Assembly (NCBI GenBank): GCA_964494945.1
Contig: CAZBTX010000004.1
Span: 27,385 to 91,384 of the forward strand
Direction: 5' to 3'
Source: an uncultured Candidatus Saccharibacteria bacterium
Lineage (GTDB): Bacteria; Patescibacteriota; Minisyncoccia; Sungbacterales; JACQCQ01
Length of the DNA stretch: 64,000 nt
The position numbers and the translations under genes were made by a program. Shown here in pieces: positions 1,331 to 22,853 of this stretch (positions are counted from its first letter, which is position 1; the number at the start of each line of letters is the position of its first letter). The notes beneath the pieces are model-generated. The model ran no database searches. It saw only the letters and a program-made list of their open reading frames with translations, and was not told the origin of the DNA.

Positions 1331-2472
1331 AAGTCATTTTTTTAAGTTCCGATCGTCTGATCCTGGGAGATTCTCCGGCGCGTCGTCGCATGGCGGAGTA
1401 CGGCAGGATATTTGATGAGGTGCACGTTATTGTTTTTGCGAAAGGAGTACGTCGCAAAGAAAATATTTCCGCGAATGTAAGCTACTATACCACGGGTTCA
1501 CTTTCGCGCTGGCGGTATCCCTTTGACGCATTTCTTATCGCCAAAGCAATTATCGCTAAGTCCGGCAGCGTAAAAGGCGACTTTATTGTCAGCGCTCAAG
1601 ACCCCTTTGAGGCCGGGGCAATAGCGTACTGGCTCAAAAAAAGAACCGGCGTGCCTTATCAGATACAAATCCATACAGATTTTCTTTCGCCTTATTTCGT
1701 AAAAGAACACTGGGAGAACCGATTACGTTTACTGACGGCCGGTTTTATATTAGAGAGAGCCGATTGCATACGCGCGGTTTCCCAACGCATCGTTCGTTCC
1801 TTGGTCCTTCGCTACCCCGCTATTTCCAGAGAACGGATTGCCGTACTTCCGGTTTGGGGCGAACCGTTTTCCATTCATCCGGTACCCGAAGCCGGGAGAT
1901 TCAACATTCTGGTTGTTTCCAGATTAGAACCGGAAAAAGGCATAGACGATGCCCTGTCTGCTTTTAAGATGTTCCACGCTCTCGGTGGGAGCGGGCGTCT
2001 GGTTATCGTGGGCAGCGGCAGTCAATATCAAAAACTTCGTAAACGCGCGGAGTCGCAAGACATAGCACCCTTTGTTTCTTTTGAGGGGTGGCAAGCAACA
2101 CTCGGCAAATACTATGAAACGGCCGATGTATTCCTTATGCCATCGCATTACGAAGGATGGGGTATGGCCGCATATGAAGCGGTACGTATTGGTATTCCGG
2201 TGGTTATAACAAATGTCGGACTTGCGGGAGAAGCGGTGAAAGACGGTGAGAACGGCCTCATTGTGCCCGTGGGAGACATAGAAGCCATGGCTCATGCTCT
2301 TCTTAAGGTATCTAGAGGTGAGTTGCGTTTTAGCGGGGCCGTAGGCGCGGATTTACCCCCACACCAGAAAATCACGGGCTTACGCCCGTGGTGTGGGGGT
2401 TTATCGGCAACGCAGGCGGAATATCTGGAACAATATCTTAAGGCAATGAAACTTTGCCAAAAACCAAGCTAA
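1327..2472 (+). CDS. Glycosyltransferase family 4 (GT-B); C-terminal tail reads through a palindromic repeat
   Basis: It carries EGWGMAAYEA..GIPVV.TNVGLAGE, typical of a GT4 C-domain. Its start overlaps the upstream stop as ATGA. The last ~40 codons are encoded by the TTTACCCCCACACC repeat element. Confidence 0.7.
   Translation: MKVIFLSSDRLILGDSPARRRMAEYGRIFDEVHVIVFAKGVRRKENISANVSYYTTGSLSRWRYPFDAFLIAKAIIAKSGSVKGDFIVSAQDPFEAGAIAYWLKKRTGVPYQIQIHTDFLSPYFVKEHWENRLRLLTAGFILERADCIRAVSQRIVRSLVLRYPAISRERIAVLPVWGEPFSIHPVPEAGRFNILVVSRLEPEKGIDDALSAFKMFHALGGSGRLVIVGSGSQYQKLRKRAESQDIAPFVSFEGWQATLGKYYETADVFLMPSHYEGWGMAAYEAVRIGIPVVITNVGLAGEAVKDGENGLIVPVGDIEAMAHALLKVSRGELRFSGAVGADLPPHQKITGLRPWCGGLSATQAEYLEQYLKAMKLCQKPS
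2351..2404. repeat. Palindromic element family 2 copy (ATTTACCCCCACACC-N24-GGTGTGGGGGTTTAT) inside 3' end of GT4 ORF
   Basis: It was verified. Confidence 0.7.
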
Positions 2473-2533
2473 TCATCTCGCCGTCTCGTAATATTTAAGA
2501 TATACTTATAAAAAGATTTTAATTCCCATTATT

Positions 2534-2908
2534 ATGTCGCTTATCACTCTCGGTCTTATAGCTTTCACGGTGCTTTCGGCGGTTTCAAGTCAAACGATAT
2601 TCAAATCCTGGTCCAACCAACTTGGTTCTCAAAGTATTTCGGCCGGGAATGTTCTGGATGTCTTTCTGAAGATTTTACAGAGCCCGCTGATGCTTTTGGC
2701 GCTTATTATCTATGGGCTGGGTTTTATGTCCTGGATCTTTTTGCTTTCCCGCAATGAACTTTCGCTGGTATACCCGGTGGTGCTTAGCGTAAATATCGTA
2801 GTTATGCTTTTTGCTTCCTCCATTTTTTTTCATGAGTCAATCAATTTTTTTCAGCTCCTGGGAACCTTCGTTGTCATAGCGGGCATATATCTGCTATTTG
2901 TCGCTTAA
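2534..2908 (+). CDS. Small 4-TM membrane protein, GtrA/SMR(ArnE/F)-like lipid-linked sugar flippase candidate
   Basis: It is 124 aa with four hydrophobic helices and lies inside a glycosylation locus. Confidence 0.45.
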   Translation: MSLITLGLIAFTVLSAVSSQTIFKSWSNQLGSQSISAGNVLDVFLKILQSPLMLLALIIYGLGFMSWIFLLSRNELSLVYPVVLSVNIVVMLFASSIFFHESINFFQLLGTFVVIAGIYLLFVA

Positions 2909-2915
2909 TACGGCG

Positions 2916-3040
2916 ATACGCCCGCCTAAGTCCGCCTAAATTTTTATAGTGGCGGGTAGGGCGTACGTATGTCTAGAATATTTTGTAGAGTATGATGAAT
3001 CCTGTATATAGATTAAAACTTAGGCGGATTTAGGCGGGTA
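2916..3040. promoter_or_regulatory. Intergenic inverted repeat (CCCGCCTAAGTCCGCCTAAATT / AACTTAGGCGGATTTAGGCGGG) flanking ~75 bp AT-rich spacer immediately upstream of GT4 start
   Basis: Arms of 22 bp at 2921-2942 and 3017-3038 are near-perfect reverse complements. The second arm abuts the ATG at 3040. Confidence 0.5.
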
Positions 3041-4083
3041 TGCGGCTTCTTATCGTAACCCACGCCCTTGATGCCCGGGATACTAATCTCGGGTTTTTCC
3101 ATGAATGGGTCAGGCGGTTCTCTGAAACGTTTGAAGAAGTATTTGTCATAGCGCAGCGCATCGGTTCCGTTGATCTGCCTTCAAACGTTTTTGTGGAATC
3201 TTCCGGAAAGGAGAGGGGCGCCGGCAGATTTATGAGATTTTCCCGTTTTTGGGCGGCCGAGCGGCGTTTTATTTCAAGGACCGATGCTGTTTTTGTGCAT
3301 ATGAGTCCTTTGTATGCGATACTCGCTTGGCCTATGGCCCGCTTTTACGGCCGACCGCTTTATTTTTGGTATGTTCACGGAAGTGTCACATTCTTGCTTC
3401 GCGCGGCAGAGCGCCTGGTAAAACGCGTATTCACGGCTTCTCCGGAAAGTTTTCGCATTCCTTCTAAAAAAACGATAGTGGTAGGGCACGGCGTTGATAC
3501 CGATGTCTACGCTCCGGGAACGCGGGAAAATCGCGGAATTCTAACCATTCGTACACTGGGCAGGATAAGCCGTTCCAAAAATCTGCATATACTGGTAAAA
3601 TCCGCCGTTCTGCTTAAAAAAACTAAACCATCGGGGTGGGGGTTAAGTATTATTGGGGATCCGCCCGATGAGGAGGGCAAGGTCTATCTCAAAGAATTGT
3701 TATCGCTTAGCGAAAAGGAAGGCGTTACTGGAGAGGTCATATTCCATCGGGGAGTTCCGCATTCAGAGACGCCAAAACTTTATCGGGATACCGACATCTT
3801 CGTTAATCTTTCCGAAACGGGGAGCATAGATAAAGCCGTACTGGAAGCCATGAGTTCTGGGTGCTCAATTGTGAGTTCCAACGAGGCCTTTTTCTCCGTA
3901 TTGCCGGAGTCATCGCTCGTAAGAGAATTAACACCCGAAAATGTTGCCGGAGCTATCTTGAAAGCGTGGGATGAAAGTAGACCGCGAATGGACATGCGCA
4001 GAGTTGTGGAAAAAAGATTCAATTTGAGGTCGTTGATAAAAAATATCTCGGAGACAATAAAAAAAGACCAAAGTGAGGCATGA
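3040..4083 (+). CDS. Glycosyltransferase family 4 (GT-B)
   Basis: Its architecture is GT4-like and the reading frame is clean. Confidence 0.6.
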   Translation: MRLLIVTHALDARDTNLGFFHEWVRRFSETFEEVFVIAQRIGSVDLPSNVFVESSGKERGAGRFMRFSRFWAAERRFISRTDAVFVHMSPLYAILAWPMARFYGRPLYFWYVHGSVTFLLRAAERLVKRVFTASPESFRIPSKKTIVVGHGVDTDVYAPGTRENRGILTIRTLGRISRSKNLHILVKSAVLLKKTKPSGWGLSIIGDPPDEEGKVYLKELLSLSEKEGVTGEVIFHRGVPHSETPKLYRDTDIFVNLSETGSIDKAVLEAMSSGCSIVSSNEAFFSVLPESSLVRELTPENVAGAILKAWDESRPRMDMRRVVEKRFNLRSLIKNISETIKKDQSEA

Positions 4084-4883
4084 AATCTTTTCTGCGCAAA
4101 CTGCTTACTTTGAAGCTGTGGATATTGCAAGCCGCACTGCGGCCATTTTTTAGTCAGCCGGTTGTGGCGGTCTTGGTCTACCACAGCGTTGACGATACGA
4201 ATTGGTTTTACGGCGTTTCTCCCGGTGCTTTCCGGCAGCAGATGGAATACCTAAAGCGTTACTGCCGGCCGGTTACATTCCAAGAAGTAGTAAGTTATGC
4301 CAAAGGTGAGATAAAACTTTCTCCGCGCTCCGTGGCTGTAACCTTTGATGACGGTTATGCCAATGTGGTGGAGGCGGCCTTTCCCGTTTTAAGGGATTAC
4401 GGCATACCCATGACCATATTTTTGACAACCTCTCCGGAGGCCAACCGAAAAGAACTGGACAACTCTTTCCCCATAGCAAGCTGGGACCAAATTCGCGACA
4501 TGGCGCGCTCCGGGCTTGTAACCGTGGGCGCTCACGGGGCTACGCATGTCCGCTTGGACACTATTCCCCCGGAGTTGCTGGAGCGGGAAATATACGAGTC
4601 GCAAAGAACAATTGAAAAAGAATTGGATGGTCCCCCCAAGTTCTTTGCTTACCCTAAGGGGTTATTTTCAAAAGAAGTGGTTGAAGCCGTTAAGCGTCAC
4701 GGCTTTGAAGCCGCGGCTGCCGCCAAGCAGGGCATAGTCCGACCGGGCGATGACCCTTATGCCATAAAAAGAGTGGCGGTGCACCGCGGCATCGGCGAGT
4801 GGGAATTTAAGGCGCGGCTTACGGCGGCCATTGATTGGATAACGTATTGGTGGGTATTATATCAGCGTCTTATTTCAAGATAA
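4080..4883 (+). CDS. Polysaccharide deacetylase (NodB-homology, CE4)
   Basis: It carries VTFDDGY...HGATH, the NodB motifs. Its start overlaps the upstream stop as ATGA. Confidence 0.7.
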   Translation: MKSFLRKLLTLKLWILQAALRPFFSQPVVAVLVYHSVDDTNWFYGVSPGAFRQQMEYLKRYCRPVTFQEVVSYAKGEIKLSPRSVAVTFDDGYANVVEAAFPVLRDYGIPMTIFLTTSPEANRKELDNSFPIASWDQIRDMARSGLVTVGAHGATHVRLDTIPPELLEREIYESQRTIEKELDGPPKFFAYPKGLFSKEVVEAVKRHGFEAAAAAKQGIVRPGDDPYAIKRVAVHRGIGEWEFKARLTAAIDWITYWWVLYQRLISR

Positions 4884-4887
4884 GTTT

Positions 4888-5736
4888 ATGGGGGGAATAC
4901 CGGCTTCAGTGAGCATTCTTACGTTTAACTCTGCCACGACTTTGCCGCGGGCGCTTGAATCCCTGAAAGATTTTGATGAGATCATTGTTTGTGATGGAGG
5001 CAGTACCGACGGAACATTAGCCATTGCCGAAAAATACGGCTCCAAGGTAATCTTTCAAAACGCAAAGTATAAAAATGCCGACGGCACAATTCGTGATTAT
5101 GCCGGAGTGCGTAACCAGTGTTTGGGTGCCGCAGAACATGACTGGTTCTTCTATTTGGATTCCGACGAGGTCATAACTCCCGAGCTGTGCGATGAGATCC
5201 GCGATATTATTGCTTCTCTCCCCAGTGTTCTTATATATGAAGTGAGTTTTGAGATGGAATTACCAGGCCGTTTGGTGCGTGAAAGTGCCGCCCTGCCGAG
5301 TTATCAATTGAGATTTTTCAACATCATGACGGGTGCGCGATTTACCAAAGAAGTCCATGAAAAGATTGTTTTTGACAGAAAGAAGTATAAAGTGGGCCGG
5401 CTTAAAGGCAAATGGCGCGTGATCTGGAACGAAGATAGAGTAAGGAACTACTGGAAGAGGGCCGACCGTTATCTGGCTATGGAGGTGCGCCGTCTCGGCC
5501 ATCAGACATTCCCGGAATTCATCGGGTTTGCTTTTGGGAACATACTGCAAATTGGTAAGCGAGCGTCAAAAATCGCCATTAATCTTTTGCGTTTGCCCGT
5601 GCGGTCGCGGATGCCCATACGCTTGGAACTCTACAGCATTGGCTATGCCGCCAAACTGATGTATCTTATGGCTAAAAAAGGGTTTACCCCCACACCCAAG
5701 AATACTTCACCCTTCAAGGTGAGGATGAGTAGATGA
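4888..5736 (+). CDS. Glycosyltransferase family 2 (GT-A)
   Basis: It carries ILTFNSATTLPRALESL...DGGSTDGT...YLDSDE, the DxD region. The C-terminal codons run into the palindromic repeat. Confidence 0.65.
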   Translation: MGGIPASVSILTFNSATTLPRALESLKDFDEIIVCDGGSTDGTLAIAEKYGSKVIFQNAKYKNADGTIRDYAGVRNQCLGAAEHDWFFYLDSDEVITPELCDEIRDIIASLPSVLIYEVSFEMELPGRLVRESAALPSYQLRFFNIMTGARFTKEVHEKIVFDRKKYKVGRLKGKWRVIWNEDRVRNYWKRADRYLAMEVRRLGHQTFPEFIGFAFGNILQIGKRASKIAINLLRLPVRSRMPIRLELYSIGYAAKLMYLMAKKGFTPTPKNTSPFKVRMSR

Positions 5737-5789
5737 TTAAATTTTCCCCCCAAATGCCCCATCTTTTAGGATGAGGTGTGGGGGTTTAC
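5683..5789. repeat. Palindromic element family 2 copy (GTTTACCCCCACACC ... GGTGTGGGGGTTTAC) spanning GT2 stop and AsnB-like start
   Basis: It was verified. Confidence 0.65.
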
Positions 5790-5794
5790 AAAAC

Positions 5795-7153
5795 ATGCAT
5801 AACTTACGCAATAATTTTGAAGGCGACCGATTGCTGTGGCACGACGAGGCGCGTAAGTTGCCGTTAATTTACGATTTTTTTGAGGCGCATAAGGCGATAG
5901 ACGTTTTTTCCATTTTTGATTTCATCCTTTACGGCGCGGTACTTCCGCCCCATGCCCCGCTTTTGGGCGTAAGGCAGCTTTTCCCGGGAGAGATGATCAA
6001 AAACGGAGAGAGAACCAATGAATACGTCAATCTTGATCTTACAGTGCGGCCGCGGAACATCGCGACTATGGCCGCCGAGTTCCAGAAACTCCTCGCGGAA
6101 TATTTTGCTTCGTTCCATGACACGGAGTCAGCCGTTTTGCTGTCCGGCGGCATTGATTCGGCTATCATAGCGAGCTTCTTGGGGTCAAGGGCGACAGCGT
6201 TCACTTGGGGCGGTTGGGGCGAACAATCCACCGATGTCCGCTACGCGAAAGAAACCAGAAAAACTTTTGGCTTGAAAGAACATCATTTCGTTTACGCCGA
6301 CTACAAAAAAGACCATGAGGGATACCGTAAAGCAGTTGAAGCGCTTGGCATACCTCTGCTTTTCCACAATGCGGTGCCCCATATAAGATTAGCTCAAGCC
6401 GCGGCGGAGCGCGGCGTCAAGAGCTGGTTTATGGGGCAGAACGCCGACACGGTGCTGGTTTCTTACCCGGCGCCGATAATCATAAGACGTCTCATAAGAT
6501 TGAAGAAAATTCTGCCGATAAATCCGCTTCATCTGTGGAAACGCAAAGGATTTTTGTTCTCTACCGCCAGCGTTGTTCGTCTTTTTGCCTACTTTAAGTC
6601 ATCCGGCGTTTTTCCGGGGCCTTGGATAAAAGTTCCTCATGGCTACTTTGAGGAAAAGGAAGAGATCATGCGGCGCTACGTGCCGCGCGGCACGCTGATG
6701 CAGAAAATAATCTTAATAGAAGAGCTTCTGACCGAAGCGAGGCGAAACCAGATACATCAAAACGAGATACCGCGGCTCTATAATATAGACGTTCGTTGCC
6801 CGTACTACACCAGAAAATTCATAGAGTTCGCTCTCTCTTTGCCGGATGGGGCGCGGAGAAAAGACCATTACGGCAAGGCGGTTTTCAAGGAACTGGCGCG
6901 CCTTAGGGGCGTACCCGATGTTGTCATAGAAAAAGGCAAAAAGGGCCTTTCCTACGGCTACAAGGAATTCATGGCCCGCAAGATGCATATCCCCATTTGG
7001 GACGTTATGGAAAAAGATGATTTCATGAACCACTTTCTTGATATGAGAAAGGCAAGAGCCGCCCTGCAGGATAATTTTCTGGCGTTTGACGTGCTGCGCA
7101 GTCTTTACTCTTGGGGAGAATGGGTTGCCAAAAAACGCGGATTAAAATTATAA
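5795..7153 (+). CDS. Asparagine-synthetase-like PP-loop amidotransferase lacking the N-terminal glutaminase (Ntn) domain
   Basis: It carries SGGIDS, the PP-loop, and an AsnB C-domain-like body. The ORF as listed starts at 5771 (MRCGG), but those codons are the repeat element. The start was therefore placed at the Met at 5795. Confidence 0.6.
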   Translation: MHNLRNNFEGDRLLWHDEARKLPLIYDFFEAHKAIDVFSIFDFILYGAVLPPHAPLLGVRQLFPGEMIKNGERTNEYVNLDLTVRPRNIATMAAEFQKLLAEYFASFHDTESAVLLSGGIDSAIIASFLGSRATAFTWGGWGEQSTDVRYAKETRKTFGLKEHHFVYADYKKDHEGYRKAVEALGIPLLFHNAVPHIRLAQAAAERGVKSWFMGQNADTVLVSYPAPIIIRRLIRLKKILPINPLHLWKRKGFLFSTASVVRLFAYFKSSGVFPGPWIKVPHGYFEEKEEIMRRYVPRGTLMQKIILIEELLTEARRNQIHQNEIPRLYNIDVRCPYYTRKFIEFALSLPDGARRKDHYGKAVFKELARLRGVPDVVIEKGKKGLSYGYKEFMARKMHIPIWDVMEKDDFMNHFLDMRKARAALQDNFLAFDVLRSLYSWGEWVAKKRGLKL

Positions 7154-7158
7154 CGCGT

Positions 7159-8286: not shown

Positions 8287-8354
8287 ATTGGACAAATACG
8301 AGCTATGAATGAGGAAGTATTCCGGCTAAATATTTCAAGGGTTAAATGGGCTGA

Positions 8355-8423
8355 TTTACTGAAAGCGAGAATACCACTTCAATTTTGCTGGAAGTTTACT
8401 GAAAGCCAGAGTAACACTTCAAT
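8355..8423. promoter_or_regulatory. Imperfect 29-bp tandem direct repeats (TTTACTGAAAGCGAGAATACCACTTCAAT / TTTACTGAAAGCCAGAGTAACACTTCAAT) upstream of GT gene
   Basis: It was read from the sequence. The repeat starts are 40 bp apart. Confidence 0.55.
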
Positions 8424-8498
8424 ACTGTACAGTATTTAAGTGAAGGGGATGCGATGTAGGCATGGGATGCGGTTTAAGCATTTAAGTACAAAATCAGT

Positions 8499-9611: not shown

Positions 9612-9621
9612 CGTAATTCGC

Positions 9622-11004
9622 ATGTCTCAATTTATATCAGAAGAAAAAAGTGAGAGCGTGGGACGCGCTGTAGCGCGCGGGGTGGTGATTTCGGGTAGTA
9701 CGAATGTCATACTCCGTTTTCTTGAAGCCGCGGTCGCGGTTCTTTTGCTTTCTCGGCTGTCAATTTTCCAGTACGGGGCTTATCAGCTTACACTTTCCGC
9801 TTTTGAGCTTTTTGCCGGGTTTTTCTTTGCGGGACTTTCTTCGGTTATCATAGCCGATGTTTCTCGCGAGGCCGCCGGGGATAATAAGTTCCAAGCGAAT
9901 ACGCTTTTCGGCGCTTATGCTTATTTCCAATTCGCCGTCAGCGTTTTTCTTTGGGCGGTTTTTTTCTTCGGCGCGAATCTATTGACGTATTGGGTGGGAG
10001 GAGAGACACAGCTTATCCGCATCGTCTCCTTCCTTTTTCTGGCAAGCCCGGCGGAACAGCTTTTGGGGCTTCATCTTCAAATACAACTTAAATTTTGGTG
10101 GCTGAATGCCTACAAGATACTTTACATGATATCTCGTCTCGGCATGCTGACGACGGTGTTTTTCCTGGGACTGCTTGACGCGAAATGGGCCGTGGTGAGC
10201 TTGGTTTTTTCCTCGGTCGCTGCGTCCTTAGTCGTTATACCCTTCGTCAGTTTTGTAAGTTCCATCGGCGCGCCACAACCGATGCGCCGAGCCAAAGCAC
10301 TTTTTGCGGTTATTAAAGAACACGGCAAGTGGGCTATTGTAAATGATTTCATAGGGAACATCGGTTCCTCTATTCGGCCTTTTCTTATCCGCATCTTTGT
10401 GGGCGTGGAAGCGGTTGCCGTATTCACCGTGGCGCAGAACTTCGCCGGCTATCTAAGTTCGGCGTTTCCTATCAGAGAAGTATTGTCGCCCATATTTCCG
10501 CGTCAAGCCCATGACGCCAAAGCGCTGGCCGCGACTTTTAATCGCGTCTTGAAATATTCCACCCTGGCTTTTTTGCTGATTGCCGCAGCTGGCGCCGTGG
10601 CAGTTCCGTTATTCGTAAAATTAGCTTTTCCCAAATACGTTCTTTCGCTCCCGTATTTATTTGTCTATCTTTTTGCCATGCCGCTTCTTGGTTTCCGACT
10701 TGCCGTAACTCCGCTTTTTGCCGCGCTTAAAAACCAAAAATTATTCTTTTCCATTACAATTTACCGCACCGCTACTTCCGCGCTTTTAGGCGCTCTACTG
10801 ATATGGCTTTGGGGCCTTTGGGGGGCGGCGTTGGAGGCCTCGTTCGGCGTAAGTTTATTGCTCTTGCCCGTCTATACCAAGGCCCTGAGGCGGATGCTTC
10901 CCGACTGGAAGTTTTCCGCGCGTGAATTCTTTGCCTTTAATCAGGACGACCGCCGTCTTGCTTCTGCAATCGTAAGGCGACTTAAACCGGCTTTTTGGAG
11001 ATAA
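9622..11004 (+). CDS. Wzx-like oligosaccharide flippase (MOP superfamily polysaccharide biosynthesis protein)
   Basis: It is 460 aa with about 12 predicted TM helices and sits in a glycan locus. Confidence 0.55.
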   Translation: MSQFISEEKSESVGRAVARGVVISGSTNVILRFLEAAVAVLLLSRLSIFQYGAYQLTLSAFELFAGFFFAGLSSVIIADVSREAAGDNKFQANTLFGAYAYFQFAVSVFLWAVFFFGANLLTYWVGGETQLIRIVSFLFLASPAEQLLGLHLQIQLKFWWLNAYKILYMISRLGMLTTVFFLGLLDAKWAVVSLVFSSVAASLVVIPFVSFVSSIGAPQPMRRAKALFAVIKEHGKWAIVNDFIGNIGSSIRPFLIRIFVGVEAVAVFTVAQNFAGYLSSAFPIREVLSPIFPRQAHDAKALAATFNRVLKYSTLAFLLIAAAGAVAVPLFVKLAFPKYVLSLPYLFVYLFAMPLLGFRLAVTPLFAALKNQKLFFSITIYRTATSALLGALLIWLWGLWGAALEASFGVSLLLLPVYTKALRRMLPDWKFSAREFFAFNQDDRRLASAIVRRLKPAFWR

Positions 11005-12796
11005 TAAAATTTTCAATCACCAAGTAGTCCATTTCGGTCGCGAGGAAGCACCCCAAGGCGTCTTCTGGTGTTTCAATAATGGGGTCACCCGCGAGATTAA
11101 ATGAAGTATTTAGGATGAGCGGAACTCCAGTGATCTTTGCGAACTCGTTTATGAGCTCGTAATACCGACCGTTGGCTTCTTTGGTCACGGATTGAATCCG
11201 GCAAGTGCCGTCAACGTGGACTATGGATGGCACAAGCCGGCGTTTCTCCGGTACCACCAGAGCGGCGAGAAGCATAAAAGGGCTTTCTTCCAACAGTTCA
11301 AACCATTCAGACATCTTTTCGCGTAGCACTGCCGCGGCGAAGGGACGCCACGGTTCACGGTGTTTGACGCGGTTATTGAGAATATCCTTGGCATCTTCCG
11401 GCCGCGGGTCGCAAAGTATGGAACGATTTCCCAGAGCCCTCGGGCCGTATTCGGCACCCCCCTGGAACCAGCCGATAATTTTCTTTTCCGCCATCAGTTT
11501 GGCGGCTTCAGCCGATACATTTGGTGATTTTTGGGCGTTAACCCTGTCTTTGACCTTTGATATTGCTTCGGTAATTTCTTTTTCGGAATAACCGCGGCCA
11601 AGCGCGGCATTTTGCATTTTCCAGAATCTGGGACGGTCCAGTATCATGTGCCAGCCGTAAAGAGCGCACCCTAACGCCACGCCGGTGTCGGAACATCCCG
11701 GCTGAATGAATATTTTCTTGAATCCCGCCTTATCAAGAAAGTTCTTATTGGCGTCGATGTTCAGCCCCACGCCGCCCGCAACGCAAAGATTGGGGATATT
11801 CGTAAGTTCCCTAAGTTTTATGCCCCAGCTAACCGCCACTTCTTCCAGTACTTTTTGAGCGGCATAAGCCACCGAAGCGTAATAATCGTCCGGCAATTTT
11901 TCCGATTTTTCGCGCGGCGGGCGGGGGAGGCGAATTTCATCAAATACATGGGGTTCGGTCAGGCGCTCACCGGCGACACCCGAGACCTTCAAAAGTTTCA
12001 GCGCCATGGGGCGCAGAACCAAGCGGAGCTTCATGCGGAGTATATTTCGCGCTACCTCGGCTATTTCTCGTAAACTTTTATTTTTCAGGCGCGCGCCGTA
12101 TGAGCGCGAGGGGAAAGTTATTCTGGGATTGCATAAAATATGGCCGTACTTTTCCGCGTACCAGTGACTGGCGGGAAATTGCTTAAGAATTGAATCGTTG
12201 CCATAGGGGGCAAGTCCCATCATCTTGCCTTCGTTGTATTTGCCGAGTCCGATGTAACGCTCGGATATCAGCGAGTAAAGTTTCCCGATGCCGAAAGTGT
12301 AGGGGAATATCTTGCCTTCTCTTAAGTGCGTGGTCTTTTGTATCTGATACAGGCGATTGCCTCGGCCGACGTACATGGTCTCGGTTTCGGTGGCCGCGAC
12401 CCCAAGATGATTTTCAAATTTCTCTCCGGCGCCGTCGTATACCAGAACCGCCGCCTCTTCAAACGGAGAACAAAAGAACGCCGAGGCGGCGTGCGCGTCG
12501 TGATGGTTGATAATCTCAATTCTCGCCTTGGAAAAAGCGGCTCCGGTATGTTCCAGTAACCATTGCTTCATGGGGGCGTTCTTTCTCGTGTCTATCTGGT
12601 CAATTACAACAAGGTCAACTTCTTCCGGCTTAATACCCAGTGCCTCAAGACAATAAGGTATCGCTAAAACCGGGAACATATTGTGCGAATGCTTAACACG
12701 ATTCAGGCGCTCTTCGGCAATAGCGATTACTTTTCCGTCCGATATCAGGCAGGCGCCGGTATCATGCCCCGCGATTTTTAGTCCGAGTACGTTCAT
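10982..12796 (-). CDS. Carbamoyltransferase, NodU/CmcH/TobZ family
   Basis: The N-terminus MNVLGLKIAGHDTGACL...ERLNR.KH and the ~600 aa length are typical. Confidence 0.75.
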   Translation of the reverse strand: MNVLGLKIAGHDTGACLISDGKVIAIAEERLNRVKHSHNMFPVLAIPYCLEALGIKPEEVDLVVIDQIDTRKNAPMKQWLLEHTGAAFSKARIEIINHHDAHAASAFFCSPFEEAAVLVYDGAGEKFENHLGVAATETETMYVGRGNRLYQIQKTTHLREGKIFPYTFGIGKLYSLISERYIGLGKYNEGKMMGLAPYGNDSILKQFPASHWYAEKYGHILCNPRITFPSRSYGARLKNKSLREIAEVARNILRMKLRLVLRPMALKLLKVSGVAGERLTEPHVFDEIRLPRPPREKSEKLPDDYYASVAYAAQKVLEEVAVSWGIKLRELTNIPNLCVAGGVGLNIDANKNFLDKAGFKKIFIQPGCSDTGVALGCALYGWHMILDRPRFWKMQNAALGRGYSEKEITEAISKVKDRVNAQKSPNVSAEAAKLMAEKKIIGWFQGGAEYGPRALGNRSILCDPRPEDAKDILNNRVKHREPWRPFAAAVLREKMSEWFELLEESPFMLLAALVVPEKRRLVPSIVHVDGTCRIQSVTKEANGRYYELINEFAKITGVPLILNTSFNLAGDPIIETPEDALGCFLATEMDYLVIENFIISKKPV

Positions 12797-12863
12797 TCCT
12801 TACACACTATGCCGAAATGTCGGCTTGGTTTCAAGCCATAGCCAGGTATGATACATTCTTAAT

Positions 12864-17711: not shown

Positions 17712-19557
17712 CCCAGTGCTCATACCAGACCTGAAAGATGAGCAGTGTCCAGAGTTCTAGGTAGCGGTTCTTGCTGCCGGAGAGATGCTCGTTCATAAGA
17801 GCGGTAACGGCCGCCGGTCTAAAGATATCCTGGCGCTTTAATTTTTGCGGGTCTAGGTATTCCCGGAGTACGGGCTTCAGTATGCCGGAAAACCAACGCG
17901 CGAGTGGCGGCGTTAAACCCTGCTTTTTTTTATCGACGATTTCAGTCCCAAGACGAGGCCGCATAAGTTCGCGCAAAATATATTTTCGTTTCAATCCGCG
18001 GACTTTGTAGCGTTGGGGGAGCGAGATGGCAAAATCAGCCACGCGGGGGTCAAGGAACGGAACGCGGACCTCAAGTGAGTGATACATGCCGGCCCGGTCG
18101 GTTTTCATTAAAATGTCGTCTTGCAGATAGCTCGAAATATAATAGTAAGCGCTTCTTTGAAAATCGTTGAGGTCTCGAGCTTCTCTGTTGCGGTTTGTCA
18201 CGGCCTTAAAGAGCGAATCGCCCAGCGGGCGTTGTACTATCTTGGAAATGAGGTCGGAGTTGATGGCCGATGTCCATTCGGCTTGCCGCAACATCACATC
18301 TTTCTTGTAATTTCCGAAAAAGCGTTCAGCCATAAAGGAAGCGCTCATATACTCACGTGAGGCCGGGAGCATGGTGCGAATCAACCCGCCGATGCCTTTC
18401 ACCGCGCCTTCCGGCAGAGTTCCAAGAATCCGAGCAACGGCCTGGGCCTTAAAGACCTCATACCCGCCGAATAGTTCGTCAGCTCCATCGCCGTCCAGAG
18501 CCACTGTTACTTCTTCCCGCGCGAAACGGCAGAGGAGCGCTGTCGGGAGAAGTGAAGCGTCCGCGAACGGCTCATCCAGCATGGTTGTCAGTTTTTCAAA
18601 CTCGTTCACAACCTCATGTTCGCTGAAGGTCTTCAGACGATGCGTAACACCGGTGCGTTGAGCGGCTAAGCGCGCCGTTTCCGATTCGTCATACGATCTT
18701 TCAGCAAAACCGATCGTGAAGGCCTTGATGTTCGGCGAAATTTTTCTTGCGTAGTAAGCAACAGTGCTTGAATCCACCCCGCCGGAAAGCAGGATTCCCA
18801 GGGGCACGTCGCTTATCATGCGCGACTCGACCGCGCCAGCCAGTTTCGCATCCAATTCGGCTTTGGCTGTTTCAAAAGGTATTTGATTCGCTCCCGGATT
18901 TTTAGGATATTCCCGCCAAGAAAATATCCGCTCCCTTCCGTCTTTGAAAATAAGCGCGTGTGCCGCCGGCAGACGAAAAACATTATTCCAGATGGTTTCC
19001 GGGGTTGGCGTGAAATGATGATAGAGATACCGCAGGGCTCCCGCTTCGTTGAATTCTTTTTTAAAGGCGGGGTGTGCCGCGAGTGCCTTCAGTTCCGAGC
19101 CGAAAAGGAATGTTTCCGGCGTTTTCGTCCAATACAGCGGTTTTTCCCCGAAGCGGTCGCGGGCGAGAAAGAGCATTTCTTTTTTGGCATCCCACAATGC
19201 GATAGCAAACATGCCATCAAGCTCGCTTACCATGTTTTCTCCTTTTTCTTCCCAGAGATGAACCAGTACCTCCGTATCCGAGCGCGTTTTAAAAGTATGC
19301 GTGCTCTCGAGTTTTTTGCGCAATGACGGATAGTTGTAAATCTCACCGTTAAACACCACGGTCACCGTTCCGTCCTCGTTTGATTGCGGCTGCTTGCCGG
19401 TTGAAAGATCAATGATTGAAAGGCGCCGCATGCCAAGATGCGTCCTGCCCGAAATGAAAAAGCCCTCATCATCGGGCCCGCGATGCCTTAAGGTATCCGT
19501 CATATGGCGGAGCGTTCTTTCGTCACCGTCGCCAATGAACCCGGCGATTCCGCACAT
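17698..19557 (-). CDS. asnB: Asparagine synthase (glutamine-hydrolysing) family amidotransferase
   Basis: It has the MCGIAGF N-terminal catalytic Cys2, the SGGVDSS PP-loop, and a length of 619 aa. Confidence 0.8.
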   Translation of the reverse strand: MCGIAGFIGDGDERTLRHMTDTLRHRGPDDEGFFISGRTHLGMRRLSIIDLSTGKQPQSNEDGTVTVVFNGEIYNYPSLRKKLESTHTFKTRSDTEVLVHLWEEKGENMVSELDGMFAIALWDAKKEMLFLARDRFGEKPLYWTKTPETFLFGSELKALAAHPAFKKEFNEAGALRYLYHHFTPTPETIWNNVFRLPAAHALIFKDGRERIFSWREYPKNPGANQIPFETAKAELDAKLAGAVESRMISDVPLGILLSGGVDSSTVAYYARKISPNIKAFTIGFAERSYDESETARLAAQRTGVTHRLKTFSEHEVVNEFEKLTTMLDEPFADASLLPTALLCRFAREEVTVALDGDGADELFGGYEVFKAQAVARILGTLPEGAVKGIGGLIRTMLPASREYMSASFMAERFFGNYKKDVMLRQAEWTSAINSDLISKIVQRPLGDSLFKAVTNRNREARDLNDFQRSAYYYISSYLQDDILMKTDRAGMYHSLEVRVPFLDPRVADFAISLPQRYKVRGLKRKYILRELMRPRLGTEIVDKKKQGLTPPLARWFSGILKPVLREYLDPQKLKRQDIFRPAAVTALMNEHLSGSKNRYLELWTLLIFQVWYEHWVKKL

Positions 19558-19558
19558 A

Positions 19559-20512
19559 TTAGAACCTCAAAGTTTCCTTAATGGGGAGTGCCGCGCCCGC
19601 TTCGGAAGTTTTGAATACGCGGTGCAACATTTCAGCCAAGAGTCCCATCAAAACGAATTGGACAGCGATCATGAAGAAAAATGTGGTGAGTACGGGCAAG
19701 GGGCTTTGGGTGAAGCGAAGCCCCTCGAGCAATTTGAGCAAGAGCATCCAAATAAAAGTTAGAAAGCCCAGAAATGCTGAAATAAATCCGGCTACTCCAA
19801 AAAAATGCATGGGCCGCGCCCCGTACTTCCCGAAGAAGTAAAAGACTATTACATCTAGAATCACGCGGAAAGTGCGCATCAGGCCGTATTTTGAAACCCC
19901 GTATCTCCGGCGCTGCCACGCGACCGGTACTTCGGCGACCCCGGCTCCGGCCGAGGCGGCGTAGGCGGGCATCAGGCGATGGATATCTCCCGAGAAGGGC
20001 AAAGACACCACCGATTCGCGCGCATAGGCCTTGAAAAACCCCCCATGGTCATGCAAGTGTACCCCGGTAACTTTGGAGATGAACCAGTTTGCCAGAACTG
20101 AAGGGATTTTGCGGGTTATCATCTCGCCCTGCCAGCGGTCTTTGCGCCAGCCGGATACGACGTCAAACCCCTCGTTCATTTTCTCCAAAAGAAGCGGTAT
20201 GTCTTCCGGAAGATTTTCCAAATCACCGTCCATAGTCACGATTATCTCGCCCTTTGACTCGCGCACCCCCGCCGCAGTTGCGGTAGTTTTGCCTGAATTA
20301 TGGGATAGCCGCACAATGGTGACGGGTCTTAGCACCTTTAACGCCTCAAGCGTACCGTCATTTGACCCGTCATCTACAAATATGATTTCAAAGCTTTTCA
20401 CGGCATCACTAAGGACCTTCGTCAGCCGTGCGTGAAGTTCCTTAACCGTCCCGGCTTCATTGCATACGGGAATGACTACCGAGACCTCCGTTTTCCTAGC
20501 TGAATCAGCCAT
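19559..20512 (-). CDS. GT2 polyprenyl-phosphate glycosyltransferase (Dpm1/GtrB/ArnC-like) with C-terminal TM helices
   Basis: It carries VVIPVCNE...DDGSNDGT...DGDL and two C-terminal TM segments. Confidence 0.7.
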   Translation of the reverse strand: MADSARKTEVSVVIPVCNEAGTVKELHARLTKVLSDAVKSFEIIFVDDGSNDGTLEALKVLRPVTIVRLSHNSGKTTATAAGVRESKGEIIVTMDGDLENLPEDIPLLLEKMNEGFDVVSGWRKDRWQGEMITRKIPSVLANWFISKVTGVHLHDHGGFFKAYARESVVSLPFSGDIHRLMPAYAASAGAGVAEVPVAWQRRRYGVSKYGLMRTFRVILDVIVFYFFGKYGARPMHFFGVAGFISAFLGFLTFIWMLLLKLLEGLRFTQSPLPVLTTFFFMIAVQFVLMGLLAEMLHRVFKTSEAGAALPIKETLRF

Positions 20513-20688
20513 TTTCGGTCAAGTGGATGATAGCTCAAATGCGGCGAGCGGACAACTTTCTTGATAAATTTGAACAATATTTATATAATTCCCTTCCTTG
20601 TTTTCTTCTAAAGCGATGGGGCCCAGAACGAATGCCTATAGTTCCTGCGTGTTGTCTCGCTATGGATGCCGAAGTAGAATAAAACAAT

Positions 20689-21411
20689 ATGTGGCCTCAA
20701 AAGATTGCCAGAGTCCTGGCGAATGAACTGCAGGTTTGGCGGCGCATGTTGTATAAAAAGACGGCAGTCGGTGGTGTCTCCGGAAAAACGCTGATTGATG
20801 CTTTTCATCGTCTTTACTACGATTCTTACGTTTGGAACGAAACAACTTGGTTCGGAGCCAAGGTAATGAAATATCCCGGAGACCTGGTTATTTATCAGCA
20901 GTTGGTGGCGGAAACTAAGCCGATGGTGATCATTGAAACAGGAACGGCACACGGCGGTTCAGCGCTTTTCTTCGCTCATCTCATGGATATTTTAGGTGGG
21001 GGAAAGGTGATTACGATTGATACCAAAGTTCAGCCCGGCCGTCCCGCGCATCCGAGAATTAAATATCTCACGGGATTTTCCACATCGCAGGATATAATGG
21101 AGCGGGTAAAAAATATGCTGCGACCCGGAGATAGAATAATGGCGGTGCTGGATTCGGATCACGGCAAAGATAACGTATCACGGGAATTGAAAGCATACTC
21201 GCCGCTCGTAACCCCAGGGAACTATCTTATTGTGGAAGACACGAACATCAACGGTCATCCGGTTTATCCGGCCTTCGGCCCCGGTCCCATGGAAGCGGTA
21301 GAGGAATTTTTGCGTGAGAACCATGATTTTGAGATTGACCGCGCTATGGAAAAGTTTTTGGTCACGTTCAATCCTTCCGGATTCTTAAAGAAGCGTAAAA
21401 CGGCAAAATGA
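20689..21411 (+). CDS. CmcI/cephalosporin-hydroxylase-family SAM-dependent O-methyltransferase
   Basis: It matches the family pattern IETGTAHGGSALFFA...DSDH. Confidence 0.65.
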   Translation: MWPQKIARVLANELQVWRRMLYKKTAVGGVSGKTLIDAFHRLYYDSYVWNETTWFGAKVMKYPGDLVIYQQLVAETKPMVIIETGTAHGGSALFFAHLMDILGGGKVITIDTKVQPGRPAHPRIKYLTGFSTSQDIMERVKNMLRPGDRIMAVLDSDHGKDNVSRELKAYSPLVTPGNYLIVEDTNINGHPVYPAFGPGPMEAVEEFLRENHDFEIDRAMEKFLVTFNPSGFLKKRKTAK

Positions 21412-22853
21412 ACATCATATATCGGCATATGAATAAATCCCCACACCTTCCCACGGGGTCTTCGGGAAGGTGTGGGGATAAATCGGAACGGCGAATATGG
21501 TTAGCCGCGCTAGCAGTTCGCCTTTTGGTGTTCGGTCTGATCATTTGGTCGCTCGGCGGCAACGGTCTTATATCGCTGGGAGACTCAAGTCAATATCTGC
21601 GTCTGGCTAAAGGGCTTTTGGATACCGGAACTCTTAGCGACCCCGGCTTTCCCGGTCTCATAGAGGGTACAAGGCCGCCTGGGTATCCCTTGTATCTCGC
21701 GGCATTCCTGTATTTCGGCGTTCCTTTATGGGTTGCTTCTCTTATTCAAATTATGGCGGCGAGTTTTATTCCCATTTTCGTAATGAAAATAGGAGTCCTT
21801 CTGGGTTTTGAGAGAAAGCTGGTTGCCATAGCCGGGTGGTTCACGACGCTTGAACCGCTTGAAGTTCTATACAGCGTAACGCTTCTTTCCGATGCCTTCG
21901 GCGCGCTTTTCTTTATCGCGGGAGCATATTTTCTGGTTCGTTTCTGGCGTACCAGAGCATGGAAAAATTTGATATTGGCATCGTTAATTTTGGGCGCGAT
22001 GAACTACGTACGACCCATCGCTCTATTTCTCTACATTTTGATACCGGCACTCATATTAGCAGCCGGTTTTATCCTTGAACGCTGGCGCTGGAAAGAGCAT
22101 TTAAAAGCCGCCGTCGTATTTGCCGCAGTTTTTTATTTGGTTTTAACACCTTGGCTCGCGCGAAATTATTACGATTTTAACCACTGGGGCTTCCTCTCCG
22201 CTAACAGCCGCCATCTTTATGATTATTCAGCGGTTGCCGTACGAGCGGCCGCAGAAGGAACAACGTATGAAGAGATGCGGCAAAAAATGAGAAGAGAGAT
22301 ACAGCCCCTGCTTCCTGAGCCGCGCGACATCCGGCAATTCGCTAATCAGGAAGTTTTAGGCAAGAAAGCGATTGAGATAATACTTCAGCATCCCAAAGAA
22401 TATGCCAAACTTTATTTTTTCTCCCTGCAAACATTTTTGATCTCCGGCAACTATCATTTCTTGATGGCTTTTTACGGTCTGATAGACGGCCCCAGTGCGG
22501 GGGATCAATCGTTCACGGTACTGCTTTCCAGCCGCAGTATCACCGATGGTTGGGCGGCGGTGAAGGCATTCATTAGTGAGCCCTATGGATTGATAGCGCT
22601 GATGGGTAGAGTCGTTTGGGGCCTGGTATTTGTTTTATCGCTTTTGGGGACGTGGGTCGCGTATAGGCGATATCCCGAGAGTCGTTTTGGCGCATTGTTT
22701 TATATTTTTCTCCTTTTTTATCTTGCGCTTATTACGTTGAGCTTAGTAACCGGCCTTGAGGCGCGGCACCGGCTGTTCGTGAACCCCTTCTACTTCCTGT
22801 TTATGTCTGCGGCTTTGACCTGGCTTTTTGGCAGATTAAGACGAGCGTCCTGA
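21408..22853 (+). CDS. ArnT/PMT-like (GT39/GT83) GT-C membrane glycosyltransferase
   Basis: It is polytopic and carries PPGYPLYLAAF. Its N-terminal tail contains a perfect 14-bp hairpin. Confidence 0.55.
   Translation: MNIIYRHMNKSPHLPTGSSGRCGDKSERRIWLAALAVRLLVFGLIIWSLGGNGLISLGDSSQYLRLAKGLLDTGTLSDPGFPGLIEGTRPPGYPLYLAAFLYFGVPLWVASLIQIMAASFIPIFVMKIGVLLGFERKLVAIAGWFTTLEPLEVLYSVTLLSDAFGALFFIAGAYFLVRFWRTRAWKNLILASLILGAMNYVRPIALFLYILIPALILAAGFILERWRWKEHLKAAVVFAAVFYLVLTPWLARNYYDFNHWGFLSANSRHLYDYSAVAVRAAAEGTTYEEMRQKMRREIQPLLPEPRDIRQFANQEVLGKKAIEIILQHPKEYAKLYFFSLQTFLISGNYHFLMAFYGLIDGPSAGDQSFTVLLSSRSITDGWAAVKAFISEPYGLIALMGRVVWGLVFVLSLLGTWVAYRRYPESRFGALFYIFLLFYLALITLSLVTGLEARHRLFVNPFYFLFMSAALTWLFGRLRRAS
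21439..21477. repeat. Perfect hairpin CCCCACACCTTCCC-N11-GGGAAGGTGTGGGG in N-terminal codons of GT-C gene (related CCCCACACC core)
   Basis: It was verified. Confidence 0.65.

Follow-up and report, generated by a model that had tools for sequence, protein, structure and literature searches.

The three palindromes of the window, by which is meant the whole 64-kb stretch of DNA analysed here, are likely to be non-autonomous members, lacking an open reading frame (ORF), of a family of very small mobile elements whose full-length form carries a GIY-YIG nuclease gene. Its members occur widely among uncultivated bacteria, and it is undescribed in the literature that could be searched. Its recognition accounts for the GC-rich palindromes found inside genes of the small, gene-dense CPR genomes.

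Anatomy and copy number of the palindromes

Six occurrences of the motif CCCCACACC/GGTGTGGGG in the window make up exactly three inverted pairs; in dinucleotide shuffles of the same DNA, CCCCACACC and its complement occur 0.28 times on average and never more than twice. With up to two mismatches allowed, the 14-mer TTTACCCCCACACC likewise gives six matches, where 0.25 are expected. Each pair is enclosed by a 4-nt direct repeat, and no strand is assigned to any of the copies. In copy 1, TTTA (2352-2355) precedes the arm CCCCCACACC (2356-2365), a 24-nt interior containing the inner stem CACGGGC/GCCCGTG, and the arm GGTGTGGGGG (2390-2399), after which TTTA recurs at 2400-2403. Copy 2 has the arms CCCCCACACC (5687-5696) and GGTGTGGGGG (5775-5784) around a 78-nt interior, with TTTA at 5683-5686 and 5785-5788. 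Copy 3 is flanked by TAAA (21434-21437 and 21479-21482) and is composed of the arms TCCCCACACC (21438-21447) and GGTGTGGGGA (21469-21478) around a 21-nt interior, its stem reaching 16 bp inward from the arms. Without flanks these elements, with their 10-nt arms, measure 41-98 nt; together with one flank they measure 48, 102 and 45 nt, respectively, each a multiple of three. Folded as DNA hairpins, copy 1 (-19.7 kcal/mol, z = -6.3) and copy 3 (-19.3 kcal/mol, z = -7.0) are very stable. The first-pass annotation had recognized a palindrome family at three sites, and both the motif count and the exact anatomy confirm three copies.

A fourth copy is present elsewhere in the same genome (L121 2775-2855), giving a density of four copies per ~73 kb at unrelated sites. 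The interiors of these four copies have no clear mutual similarity. No ORF or GIY-YIG remnant was found inside the window copies, and a search of Rfam 15 at gathering score returned zero matches in the window and only tRNAs in 18 related loci.

Effects on the host genes

Copy 1 lies within the gene of a GT4 glycosyltransferase (1327..2472, plus strand; 381 aa), assigned by Pfam, orthologue alignment and reconstruction, to which its 48 nt contribute 16 codons in frame. The encoded peptide, PPHQKITGLRPWCGGL (16 aa), is internal and is followed by 22 native residues. It is absent from all 13 of the aligned orthologues, relative to which the window protein is ~16 residues longer in a variable linker that precedes the conserved C-terminal helix. 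Excision of copy 1 with one 4-nt flank yields a protein of 365 aa, the length of the five closest orthologues.

Copy 2 is inserted in a GT2 glycosyltransferase gene (4888..5736, plus strand; 282 aa), four codons upstream of the original stop. The last 15 residues and the stop codon of this protein derive from the element, the new tail PTPKNTSPFKVRMSR displacing the native ...KHA end. After excision the protein has 270 aa and ends in ...KKGFTKHA, with a stop that overlaps the ATG of the AsnB-like gene, from which GT2 is now kept apart by copy 2. The AsnB-like gene itself (Asn_synthase domain; 5795..7153, plus strand) encodes 452 aa from the ATG at 5795 according to the NCBI gene call, the protein beginning MHNLRNNF. 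A further in-frame ATG upstream, at 5771, is located inside copy 2, and the ATG at 5795 is the next to follow the repeat-encoded head MRCGGLQN. Since the NCBI call begins at 5795, this head is probably untranslated, and ATG 5795 is likely the true start.

Copy 3 interrupts the gene of a GT-C/PMT_2-like membrane glycosyltransferase (21408..22853, plus strand; 481 aa) after codon 10, where its 45 nt form 15 in-frame codons and the insert corresponds exactly to the 15 residues SPHLPTGSSGRCGDK. Its excision leaves a protein of 466 aa with a short basic, orthologue-like N-terminus; the orthologue in L138 has 461 aa. At the protein level, the window copies are insertions missing from the orthologues.

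The first-pass annotation had proposed small insertion elements, sited at gene boundaries, that create terminal extensions and probably mis-set ORF boundaries. Its central proposal held, as excision of the element and one flank gives orthologue-like genes at all three sites. Orthologue alignment, which it had set as a test, found that the tails are not conserved, and the outcome that would have refuted it was not met. The peptide described as a GT4 tail failed in detail, being internal, with the SATQ native. The repeat-encoded GT2 tail and the repeat-encoded segment of the GT-C N-terminus both held, as did the repeat origin of the MRCGGLQN head, albeit probably not as translated protein. The claim of terminal extensions was only partly borne out, two of the three copies being internal in-frame insertions instead, and that of mis-set boundaries applies to the AsnB-like ORF only. 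As the hairpins add Pro/Gly-rich loops of 15-16 residues, replace C-termini and create false upstream starts, their recognition would improve gene calls in CPR genomes.

The family in public genomes and its flanking repeats

One genome per species was scanned for CCCCCACACC-N10-40-GGTGTGGGGG, with perfect 10-nt arms demanded. At least 120 loci have the same arms, against a naive expectation of ~17; these counts are incomplete and, owing to the requirement for perfect arms, skewed to intact arms. CPR/Patescibacteria contribute 59 of the 120 loci, and several other genomes hold 2-5 copies among the loci that were fetched.

Exact 4-nt direct repeats flank 49 of 123 copies, compared with 8.1 (maximum 18) when left and right flanks are paired by shuffling, and no 5-nt direct repeats were found at the flanks of these 123 copies. 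The exact matches are found in 38/63 CPR copies, 0/9 from cultured organisms and 0/13 from viral contigs, and the consensus of the flanks in CPR copies is TWWA. The pairs TAAA/TAAA and TTTA/TTTA together account for 24 copies. The inverted pair TAAA/TTTA would be expected if the flanks simply lengthened the stem, and its absence among the 40 commonest flank pairs listed points instead to target-site duplication. Additionally, similar interiors (TATTT...AAATA) are paired with differing matched flanks, namely TATA, TAAA, TTTA and CCTG. The flanks of the window copies, and of most CPR copies, thus resemble a target-site duplication of fixed 4 bp. A single attempt to find an empty site at the DNA level gave only coincidental matches and no unoccupied site.

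Copies within long ORFs have lengths that preserve the frame: (length + 4) is divisible by 3 in 16 of the 22 copies spanned by such ORFs versus 48 of 125 overall. As a separate observation, some generic same-arm matches in cultured bacteria and phages look like plain terminators in which the flanks lengthen the stem.

A GIY-YIG nuclease cassette with the same arms

The arms enclose a gene for an 84-aa GIY-YIG nuclease in six independent genomic contexts, in the layout CCCCCACACCAAA…ATG–ORF–stop–TTTGGTGTGGGGG. The full-length unit is ~290 bp, with terminal inverted arms of 10-14 bp, CCCCCACACC[AAA] ... [TTT]GGTGTGGGGG, that closely bracket this one 84-codon gene. In L117 (1342-1596), the GIY-YIG domain (Pfam PF01541) covers residues 1-71 of 84 (E = 6.5e-19), and the protein matches the UPF0213 structures PDB 1zg2 (E = 5.7e-8) and 1ywl (E = 9.5e-6). 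A protein search returned 783 homologues, of which the 120 listed are 71-96% identical and nearly all 84 aa in length, and the catalytic residues Y3, Y5, R26, H30 and E62 are invariant across homologues. The cassette proteins, of 77-91 aa, contain the catalytic domain only, with no auxiliary domains. By sequence, the cassette protein is a minimal GIY-YIG nuclease of the UPF0213/bacterial Slx1-like type; its activity is inferred.

Eight homologues were looked up in their genomic contexts, and exact bracketing arms were found in five (P0143, P0121, P0129, P0233 and P0160), all picked by protein similarity alone. In these five, the arms lie within ~10-20 nt of the ATG and 3 nt after the stop, a near-constant spacing that argues for one cassette moving as a unit. 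As for the others, P0199 shares the context of P0233, P0167 (L189) has a left arm with one mismatch, and P0213 (L185) is rearranged. Full-length cassettes have flanks that match exactly in 2/7 contexts and differ by one base in three more, and are thus less consistent than those of the ORF-less copies. No GIY-YIG gene or remnant was found in the window or the adjacent 8.7 kb of the source genome.

Because the same arms bracket the nuclease gene in six contexts, the window copies are interpreted as ORF-less, MITE-like relatives of the ~290-bp cassette. Weighing against this interpretation, the four copies in this genome have dissimilar interiors without the sub-terminal AAA...TTT that the full-length unit shows, so that they did not arise simply by deletion from a single master copy.

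The association extends to other arm types. The second palindrome family of the window has CCCGTTAGA arms, and in a sister genome CCCGTTAGA...TCTAACGGG bracket a homologous GIY-YIG pseudogene (L136 18023-18300). A third type, with CCCAGCACTAATT arms, brackets a 77-aa GIY-YIG gene in L048, from the Omnitrophota. The arm sequences of the three types are CCCCCACACC, CCCGTTAGA and CCCAGCAC, with CCC termini, and the arms offer a simple signature for finding further families of this sort. In L048 and L184, the GIY-YIG gene is found at the apex of a larger, pre-existing palindrome.

Proposed mechanism

The window copies would be elements without the gene that retained only their arms around a short interior, variable and often self-complementary. 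The nuclease is inferred to recognize the hairpin or cruciform made by the arms and to cut at the arm/flank junction. The element would then be joined to the ends of an AT-rich TWWA site that had been opened by cuts staggered by 4 nt, with the duplication filled in by host repair. A full-length copy located elsewhere in the genome may mobilize the ORF-less hairpins in trans; alternatively, they may be relics of such a copy. Within genes, survivors would be restricted to copies of length 3n without stop codons. Both the C-rich and the G-rich arms are stop-free in every frame and encode Pro/Gly-rich loops, so that insertion is better tolerated. GIY-YIG nucleases cut DNA, and strand transfer is not among their known activities; integration would therefore depend on host joining. 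Movement of the hairpins by the nuclease itself is an inference rather than a demonstrated activity. Neither an empty site nor a transposase was found.

A bolder reading, which we regard as tentative and slightly more apt to fail than to hold, is that the 84-residue UPF0213/Slx1-like nuclease is the mobilizing enzyme and constitutes, with its 10-14-bp arms, a previously unrecognized class of prokaryotic transposable element. The enzyme would cut in a structure-specific manner at the ends of hairpins or cruciforms, with joining into TWWA sites to follow, and would thereby have seeded ORF-less hairpins in large numbers throughout CPR, Omnitrophota and further uncultivated phyla. A number of palindromic repeat families without mutual relationship, among them the CCCGTTAGA type of the window, would then be products of one mechanism with co-evolving arms, and the ~290-bp unit would rank among the smallest autonomous transposable elements conceivable. 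If the cassette does move itself along with the hairpins derived from it, the enzymes of mobile elements would gain a class of nuclease with no previous link to bacterial DNA transposition, and part of the widespread UPF0213 family, whose function is uncharacterized, would acquire a selfish-element role. An 84-residue nuclease guided by structure or sequence, its activity still being inferred, may also be of interest as a tool.

Alternative explanations

The rival that survives best, though unlikely, holds that the hairpins are ordinary MITEs of an unidentified DDE transposase, for example of piggyBac/IS1380, IS701 or IS5 type, and treats the GIY-YIG gene as a secondary parasite, namely a free-standing homing endonuclease whose target is the multi-copy hairpin and which has lodged in the hairpin loop. 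The CC(C) termini and the exactly 4-bp T-rich duplication fit published signatures. In piggyBac elements the 5' motifs are CCC and the duplication is TTAA, with TAAA among its variants, while phylogenies of piggyBac take IS1380 transposases as their prokaryotic outgroup (PMC10813416); the IS701 family generates duplications of 'exactly four bps' (PMC2266710), the length seen here. GIY-YIG enzymes are classically homing endonucleases, the L048 and L184 genes occupy the apex of larger, earlier palindromes, and full-length copies have less regular flanks than short ones. Against this rival, no transposase or longer element with these termini occurs in the ~1 Mb of fetched loci, and no DDD/DDE transposase was found between the arms, GIY-YIG being present in every full-length unit examined. 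The likeness to piggyBac/IS1380 (PMC10813416) is one of end signature only, and the target of the hairpin family, TWWA, is not strictly TTAA. Moreover, each of the three arm types has its own GIY-YIG variant, as expected of an enzyme and its own ends, and arm-to-ORF spacing is near constant across independent contexts.

Arms of 10-14 bp also provide very short homology for classical homing. GIY-YIG homing endonuclease genes of I-TevI or Seg type do resemble the cassette as selfish nuclease genes at many unrelated loci with a conserved catalytic motif, but they possess a DNA-binding domain, spread by repair between homologous alleles and lack inverted termini and target duplication. The cassette protein is instead a bare catalytic domain of the UPF0213/Slx1-like branch, which has been set apart from the homing-endonuclease/UvrC branch and predicted to be a repair enzyme (PMC1564403). 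Identity as an I-TevI-like homing endonuclease was rejected, the proteins of 77-91 aa consisting of the catalytic domain alone and the NCBIfam group I intron endonuclease model scoring 17-23 bits against a cut-off of 56.

It is very improbable that the hairpins are conserved, non-mobile structures serving the host as transcription terminators or as stem-loops for RNA stability or regulation. Their stems are GC-rich and very stable, many copies are intergenic, and some same-arm matches in cultured bacteria and phages resemble plain terminators. Two of the three window copies, however, are embedded in coding sequence and missing from orthologues, the direct-repeat flanks are unable to pair, a regular T-run after the stem is absent, no Rfam family matches, and a nuclease gene is bracketed by the same arms.

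Equally remote is an identity as REP/BIME-like palindromes, for whose spread a RAYT or IS200/IS605-type HUH (Y1) transposase would act on hairpins of single-stranded DNA. Both families comprise short, scattered, GC-rich palindromes that are present many times over and also flank the gene of a dedicated enzyme, and the conserved tetranucleotide adjoining the stem superficially recalls tagged REPs (PMC3733652). REPs, however, are tagged with GTAG or CGTC at one end and make no target duplication, whereas the hairpin family lacks such a tag, has matched TWWA flanks on both sides and encloses a GIY-YIG gene rather than a Y1 transposase.

Relationship to known palindromic elements

Under the preferred reading, of ORF-less relatives of a GIY-YIG cassette, a close likeness is to MITEs, which are similarly small, non-coding and multi-copy, with terminal inverted repeats, short direct-repeat flanks and a longer partner with the same termini. 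Such a partner is present here, but it encodes a nuclease not shown to transpose DNA: it is ~290 bp in length and specifies an 84-aa GIY-YIG protein in place of a DDE, HUH or serine transposase. Many hairpin copies also fall far below typical MITE size, down to ~23-50 nt, with arms conserved over only ~10 bp and interiors that vary even within one genome.

Rickettsia palindromic elements (RPEs) are in-frame palindromic inserts in unrelated genes that encode peptide segments lacking in orthologues and tolerated by the host protein (PMC10969869). In-frame insertion into protein-coding genes is the sole trait shared with the hairpin family. RPEs are ~100-150 bp and restricted to Rickettsia, whereas the window elements, of 41-98 nt, reside in a Candidatus Sungbacteria MAG. 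RPEs are not known to have an autonomous partner or a regular target duplication, nor are their sequences known to be related to the hairpin arms. The hairpins amount to a natural collection of peptides inserted in frame into glycosyltransferases and many other proteins.

Palindromic insertions in the glycosyltransferase cluster

The source of the window is a Candidatus Sungbacteria (CPR/Patescibacteria) MAG, whose assembly is named GCA_016181625.1, and the palindromes it carries are set within a glycosyltransferase cluster, as assigned with Pfam. Across the 64-kb window there are six matches to CCCCACACC or its complement, resolving into exactly three inverted pairs, against a chance mean of 0.28 and a maximum of 2 in dinucleotide-preserving shuffles of the window. 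These pairs lie where the first-pass annotation, made from sequence alone, had located them. In each, two complementary 10-nt arms enclose a variable interior, and the same 4 nt flank the arms on both sides. Copy 1, in the GT4 gene, consists of TTTA (2352-2355), CCCCCACACC (2356-2365), an interior of 24 nt, GGTGTGGGGG (2390-2399) and TTTA (2400-2403), while copy 2, at the boundary of the GT2 and AsnB-like genes, has the same flanks (5683-5686 and 5785-5788) and arms, CCCCCACACC (5687-5696) and GGTGTGGGGG (5775-5784), around 78 nt. Copy 3, in the GT-C gene, is flanked by TAAA (21434-21437 and 21479-21482), with TCCCCACACC (21438-21447) and GGTGTGGGGA (21469-21478) enclosing 21 nt. As the flanks are direct repeats, they do not form part of the stem. 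The DNA hairpins of copies 1 and 3 are very stable, at approximately -19.5 kcal/mol and with z of around -6 to -7. A fourth copy is found just upstream of the window in the same genome (NCBI contig, locus L121, 2775-2855); no difference between the window and this contig falls within the elements. The interiors of the copies in this genome are dissimilar.

The GT4 protein has approximately 16 residues in excess of 13 aligned orthologues, none of which carries the repeat-encoded peptide. The extra residues occupy a variable linker immediately N-terminal to the conserved C-terminal helix EYLxxYRxALxxC, and in silico removal of copy 1 with one flank leaves a protein of 365 aa, the length of the five closest orthologues. 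Excision of copy 2 gives the GT2 the end ...KKGFTKHA, with a stop codon that shares bases with the AsnB-like ATG (ATGCATAA). Likewise, excision of copy 3 gives the GT-C the start MNIIYRHMNKSERRIW..., a short basic N-terminus right before the first membrane helix that is orthologue-like, as judged from one orthologue. Counted with one flank, the inserts measure 48, 102 and 45 nt, all three being multiples of three. The first-pass proposal that the repeats are insertion elements is thus supported by the missing GT4 peptide, the orthologue-like products of excision and the in-frame lengths. Its further claim that they create terminal tails held only in part, two of the three copies being internal in-frame insertions. 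The suspicion of mis-set gene boundaries was correct for the AsnB-like ORF, the repeat-encoded MRCGGLQN head of which is a mis-set start, because the NCBI gene call begins at window position 5795.

Family distribution and target-site duplication

The elements in the window were inserted with duplication of 4 bp, and they are members of a large family. When a single genome from each species was searched for the pattern CCCCCACACC-N10-40-GGTGTGGGGG, at least 120 loci matched, where naive expectation is about 17. By record title, 59 of the 120 are from CPR lineages, and the remainder are mostly from Omnitrophota, Planctomycetota and other uncultivated groups. Between the arms, both length and sequence differ greatly from copy to copy, and self-complementarity is frequent.

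Exact 4-nt direct flanks enclose 49 of 123 copies, compared with 8.1 (maximum 18) after random re-pairing of left and right flanks, and 5-nt direct-repeat flanks are absent from all 123. The flank consensus is T-W-W-A, with TAAA/TAAA and TTTA/TTTA together accounting for 24 copies. Were the flanks only to lengthen the stem, the inverted combination would be expected, and it does not occur among the 40 commonest flank pairs. Additionally, the matched flanks TATA, TAAA, TTTA and CCTG are found around similar interiors, which argues for duplication at insertion and against the flank belonging to the element. Exact flanks are present in 38 of 63 CPR copies (12 more are one base off), in none of nine from cultured organisms and in none of 13 from viral contigs. 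The viral examples are short palindromes with the same arms, all with flanks that extend the stem and without TWWA direct repeats. The cultured and viral hits resemble ordinary chance palindromes or terminators, and are taken as background.

The reading frame is kept in 16 of the 22 copies spanned by a long open frame, versus 48 of 125 overall; the selection behind the former figure is partly circular, and the exceptions are mostly high-GC hits outside the CPR.

A separate observation comes from a sister Sungbacteria genome, in which a 26-nt mini-hairpin, CCCCACACC-tatgcata-GGTGTGGGG, is intergenic in a syntenic cell-wall locus (L136, 1688-1713), at a site different from that of the fourth copy in the window genome.

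The GIY-YIG cassette

The arms of this family form the ends of a cassette that carries a GIY-YIG gene and has spread to unrelated sites. The lead was provided by a "solo" arm in a Saccharibacteria locus (L117), where an ORF of 84 aa (1342-1596) is enclosed by a left and a right arm, each of them flanked by TAAA. Its product consists of a GIY-YIG nuclease domain alone (Pfam E = 6.5e-19) and matches both solved bacterial UPF0213 structures, 1zg2 and 1ywl, which are placed in the minimal "bacterial Slx1-like" branch. In a phylogenomic survey, this branch comprises predicted repair enzymes, and whether further GIY-YIG members are molecular parasites was left open (PMC1564403). A search with the protein returned 783 homologues, at least 120 of which share 71-96% identity; these are nearly all 84 aa in length and in many cases are found on very short contigs.

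Eight homologues, selected solely from the protein list, were taken for DNA context. Five (P0143, P0121, P0129, P0233 and P0160) are bracketed exactly, in the order T-rich 4-mer, CCCCCACACC, AAA, N3-8, ATG, 84 codons, stop, TTT and GGTGTGGGGG. P0199 has the same context as P0233, the left arm of P0167 (L189) has one mismatch and P0213 (L185) is rearranged. With L117 included, this unit of approximately 290 bp is present in six independent genomic contexts; no full-length cassette was found in the viral contigs. The catalytic residues are conserved, with no variation at Y3, Y5, R26, H30 and E62 and almost none at Y16, G18, N31 and E50. The flanks of the full-length unit are irregular, with two of seven exact. 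No GIY-YIG gene or remnant was found in the window and its 8.7-kb upstream extension, and all local copies are therefore non-autonomous.

The P0143 cassette is present in identical form on thirteen contigs (L170-L179) from different groundwater samples. Upstream genes for a UvrD helicase and a Ymh-like protein are common to the ten examined, and the contigs fall into two groups whose sequences part about 30 nt past the right arm. At another locus (L184, 690-1100), a full-length cassette is inserted at the apex of a CCCCGGGG...CCCCGGGG hairpin that predates it, and it is possible that existing hairpin loops or cruciforms are preferred targets.

Relation to known elements

The elements are like MITEs in their inverted termini, target duplication, lack of an ORF and possession of a longer partner, and like Rickettsia palindromic elements (RPEs) in residing in frame within proteins (PMC10969869). 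They are not members of the RPEs, the REPs or the Rfam RNAs; no Rfam family matched in the window, nor did any match the elements in 18 related loci. The partner protein is not a known transposase and, unlike a typical homing endonuclease, has no DNA-binding module, scoring far under the cut-off of the NCBIfam model. Neither an account of this family, under its arm sequences or as MITEs in the CPR, nor a description of bacterial GIY-YIG genes with inverted termini and non-autonomous derivatives was found in the literature searched, the coverage of which was incomplete, such that an earlier description is possible. There is a substantial chance, falling a little short of the balance of probability, that the cassette represents a new class of mobile element.

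Proposed mechanism and the principal rival

By analogy with the action of Slx1-type enzymes on branched DNA, the nuclease may recognise the hairpin or cruciform formed by the arms and would cut at the arm/flank junction, the element then being joined to an AT-rich TWWA target in which the strands are opened 4 nt apart. The short copies would either be moved in trans or be relics, and their survival in genes would require a length divisible by three and an absence of stop codons. The arms contain no stop codon in any frame, and the segments they encode are Pro- or Gly-rich (PPH/PHT/PTP and GVG/VWG/CGG), a composition well suited to termini and to loops at the protein surface. The weak points of this proposal are the lack of a DNA-level empty site, the irregular flanks of the full-length units and the dissimilar interiors in the window genome; furthermore, DNA joining is not a known activity of GIY-YIG enzymes. 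A search of metagenome contigs for the empty site, using the 22-mer of the reconstructed copy-1 junction, gave 30 hits, all from an unrelated soil organism and with random flanks.

The main rival is that the hairpins owe their movement to a DDE transposase that has not been identified, the GIY-YIG gene being a parasite that homes to the hairpin loop. In its favour, the published signatures of piggyBac/IS1380 and IS701 resemble the CCC termini with a 4-bp T/A-rich duplication. However, the piggyBac/IS1380, IS701 and IS5 end signatures were rejected as an identity and kept as a resemblance only, since the gene that the arms enclose does not encode a DDE transposase. No perfect-arm pair 150-6000 nt apart encloses a transposase-like unit, and no longer element with these termini was found in the fetched loci. 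When inverted-repeat pairs of any sequence were sought in all loci, at a spacing of 600-3200 nt and with duplications of 3-9 nt, nothing related to these arms emerged. This rival is considered unlikely, and is not excluded.

One candidate for a longer unit, a 1,415-nt pair with matching TTTG flanks (window 46666-48080), was rejected as a chance match, its arms being imperfect and located inside a single ORF of 861 aa.

Other arm types and related palindromes

Different arm types accompany different GIY-YIG variants. A frameshifted GIY-YIG pseudogene of the sister Sungbacteria genome (L136, 18023-18300) is enclosed by CCCGTTAGA...TCTAACGGG. The arms of a second palindromic family in the window (ATCCCGTTAGAAGC / GCTTCTAACGGGAT; 39982-40093, 41681-41829 and 49318-49432, with a lone arm at 49305), which is ORF-less with 84-109 nt between arms, are those around this pseudogene; on this evidence the family seems to be an element of the same type, distinguished by its arm sequence. 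An Omnitrophota locus (L048, 1410-1640, minus strand) carries a GIY-YIG gene of 77 aa between the variant arms CCCAGCACTAATT / AATTAGTGCTGGG. Within a larger composite palindromic unit, the gene takes up the apex, the exact place where a short variable interior is normally found and where the CCCCCACACC hairpin is the usual occupant.

A nested palindrome of about 190 bp recurs in Omnitrophota and Planctomycetota (L009, L014, L021, L052, L061, L079, L092, L094, L104, L106 and L107). Its outer arms, CCTCCTTCAATGAGC / GCTCATTGAAGGAGG, resemble anti-SD and SD sequences, and enclose ACTTAYG...CRTAAGT hairpins with the CCCCCACACC hairpin at the apex. The interior of about 25 nt is constant within a genome and different between genomes, and the whole spreads as a composite without 4-nt direct flanks.

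A more distant clade of small GIY-YIG proteins (34-48% identity) is found at L078 (2312-2622), L097 (3797-4116), L083 (771-1109), L103 (430-1130) and L181 (880-1300), and the CCCCCACACC arms are absent from all five loci. On one side these genes overlap or abut tRNA genes (Val, Glu, Cys, Leu), and on the other there are partial duplicates of the tRNA, a layout typical of elements integrated into tRNA genes.

Orthologues of a small Cys-rich gene, M(S/A)KEIA(T/N)KTEKEIH...IKCKKCGT, are present in L117 (1617-1720) and in a further locus, L180 (1808-1981). Both are interrupted in frame at one position, by a CCCCCACACC hairpin in L117 and by a CCCGTTAGA hairpin in L180, which might reflect an insertion hot spot or the replacement of one hairpin by the other.

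Lastly, the window differs from the NCBI contig JACOYZ010000016.1 at 15 positions in 12.5 kb, 14 of which are clustered in 100 nt (10734-10833). This patch lies at the 3' end of an ORF (9622-11004), just upstream of its overlap with a minus-strand ORF (10982-12796), and could represent a recombination patch or a mixture of strains.
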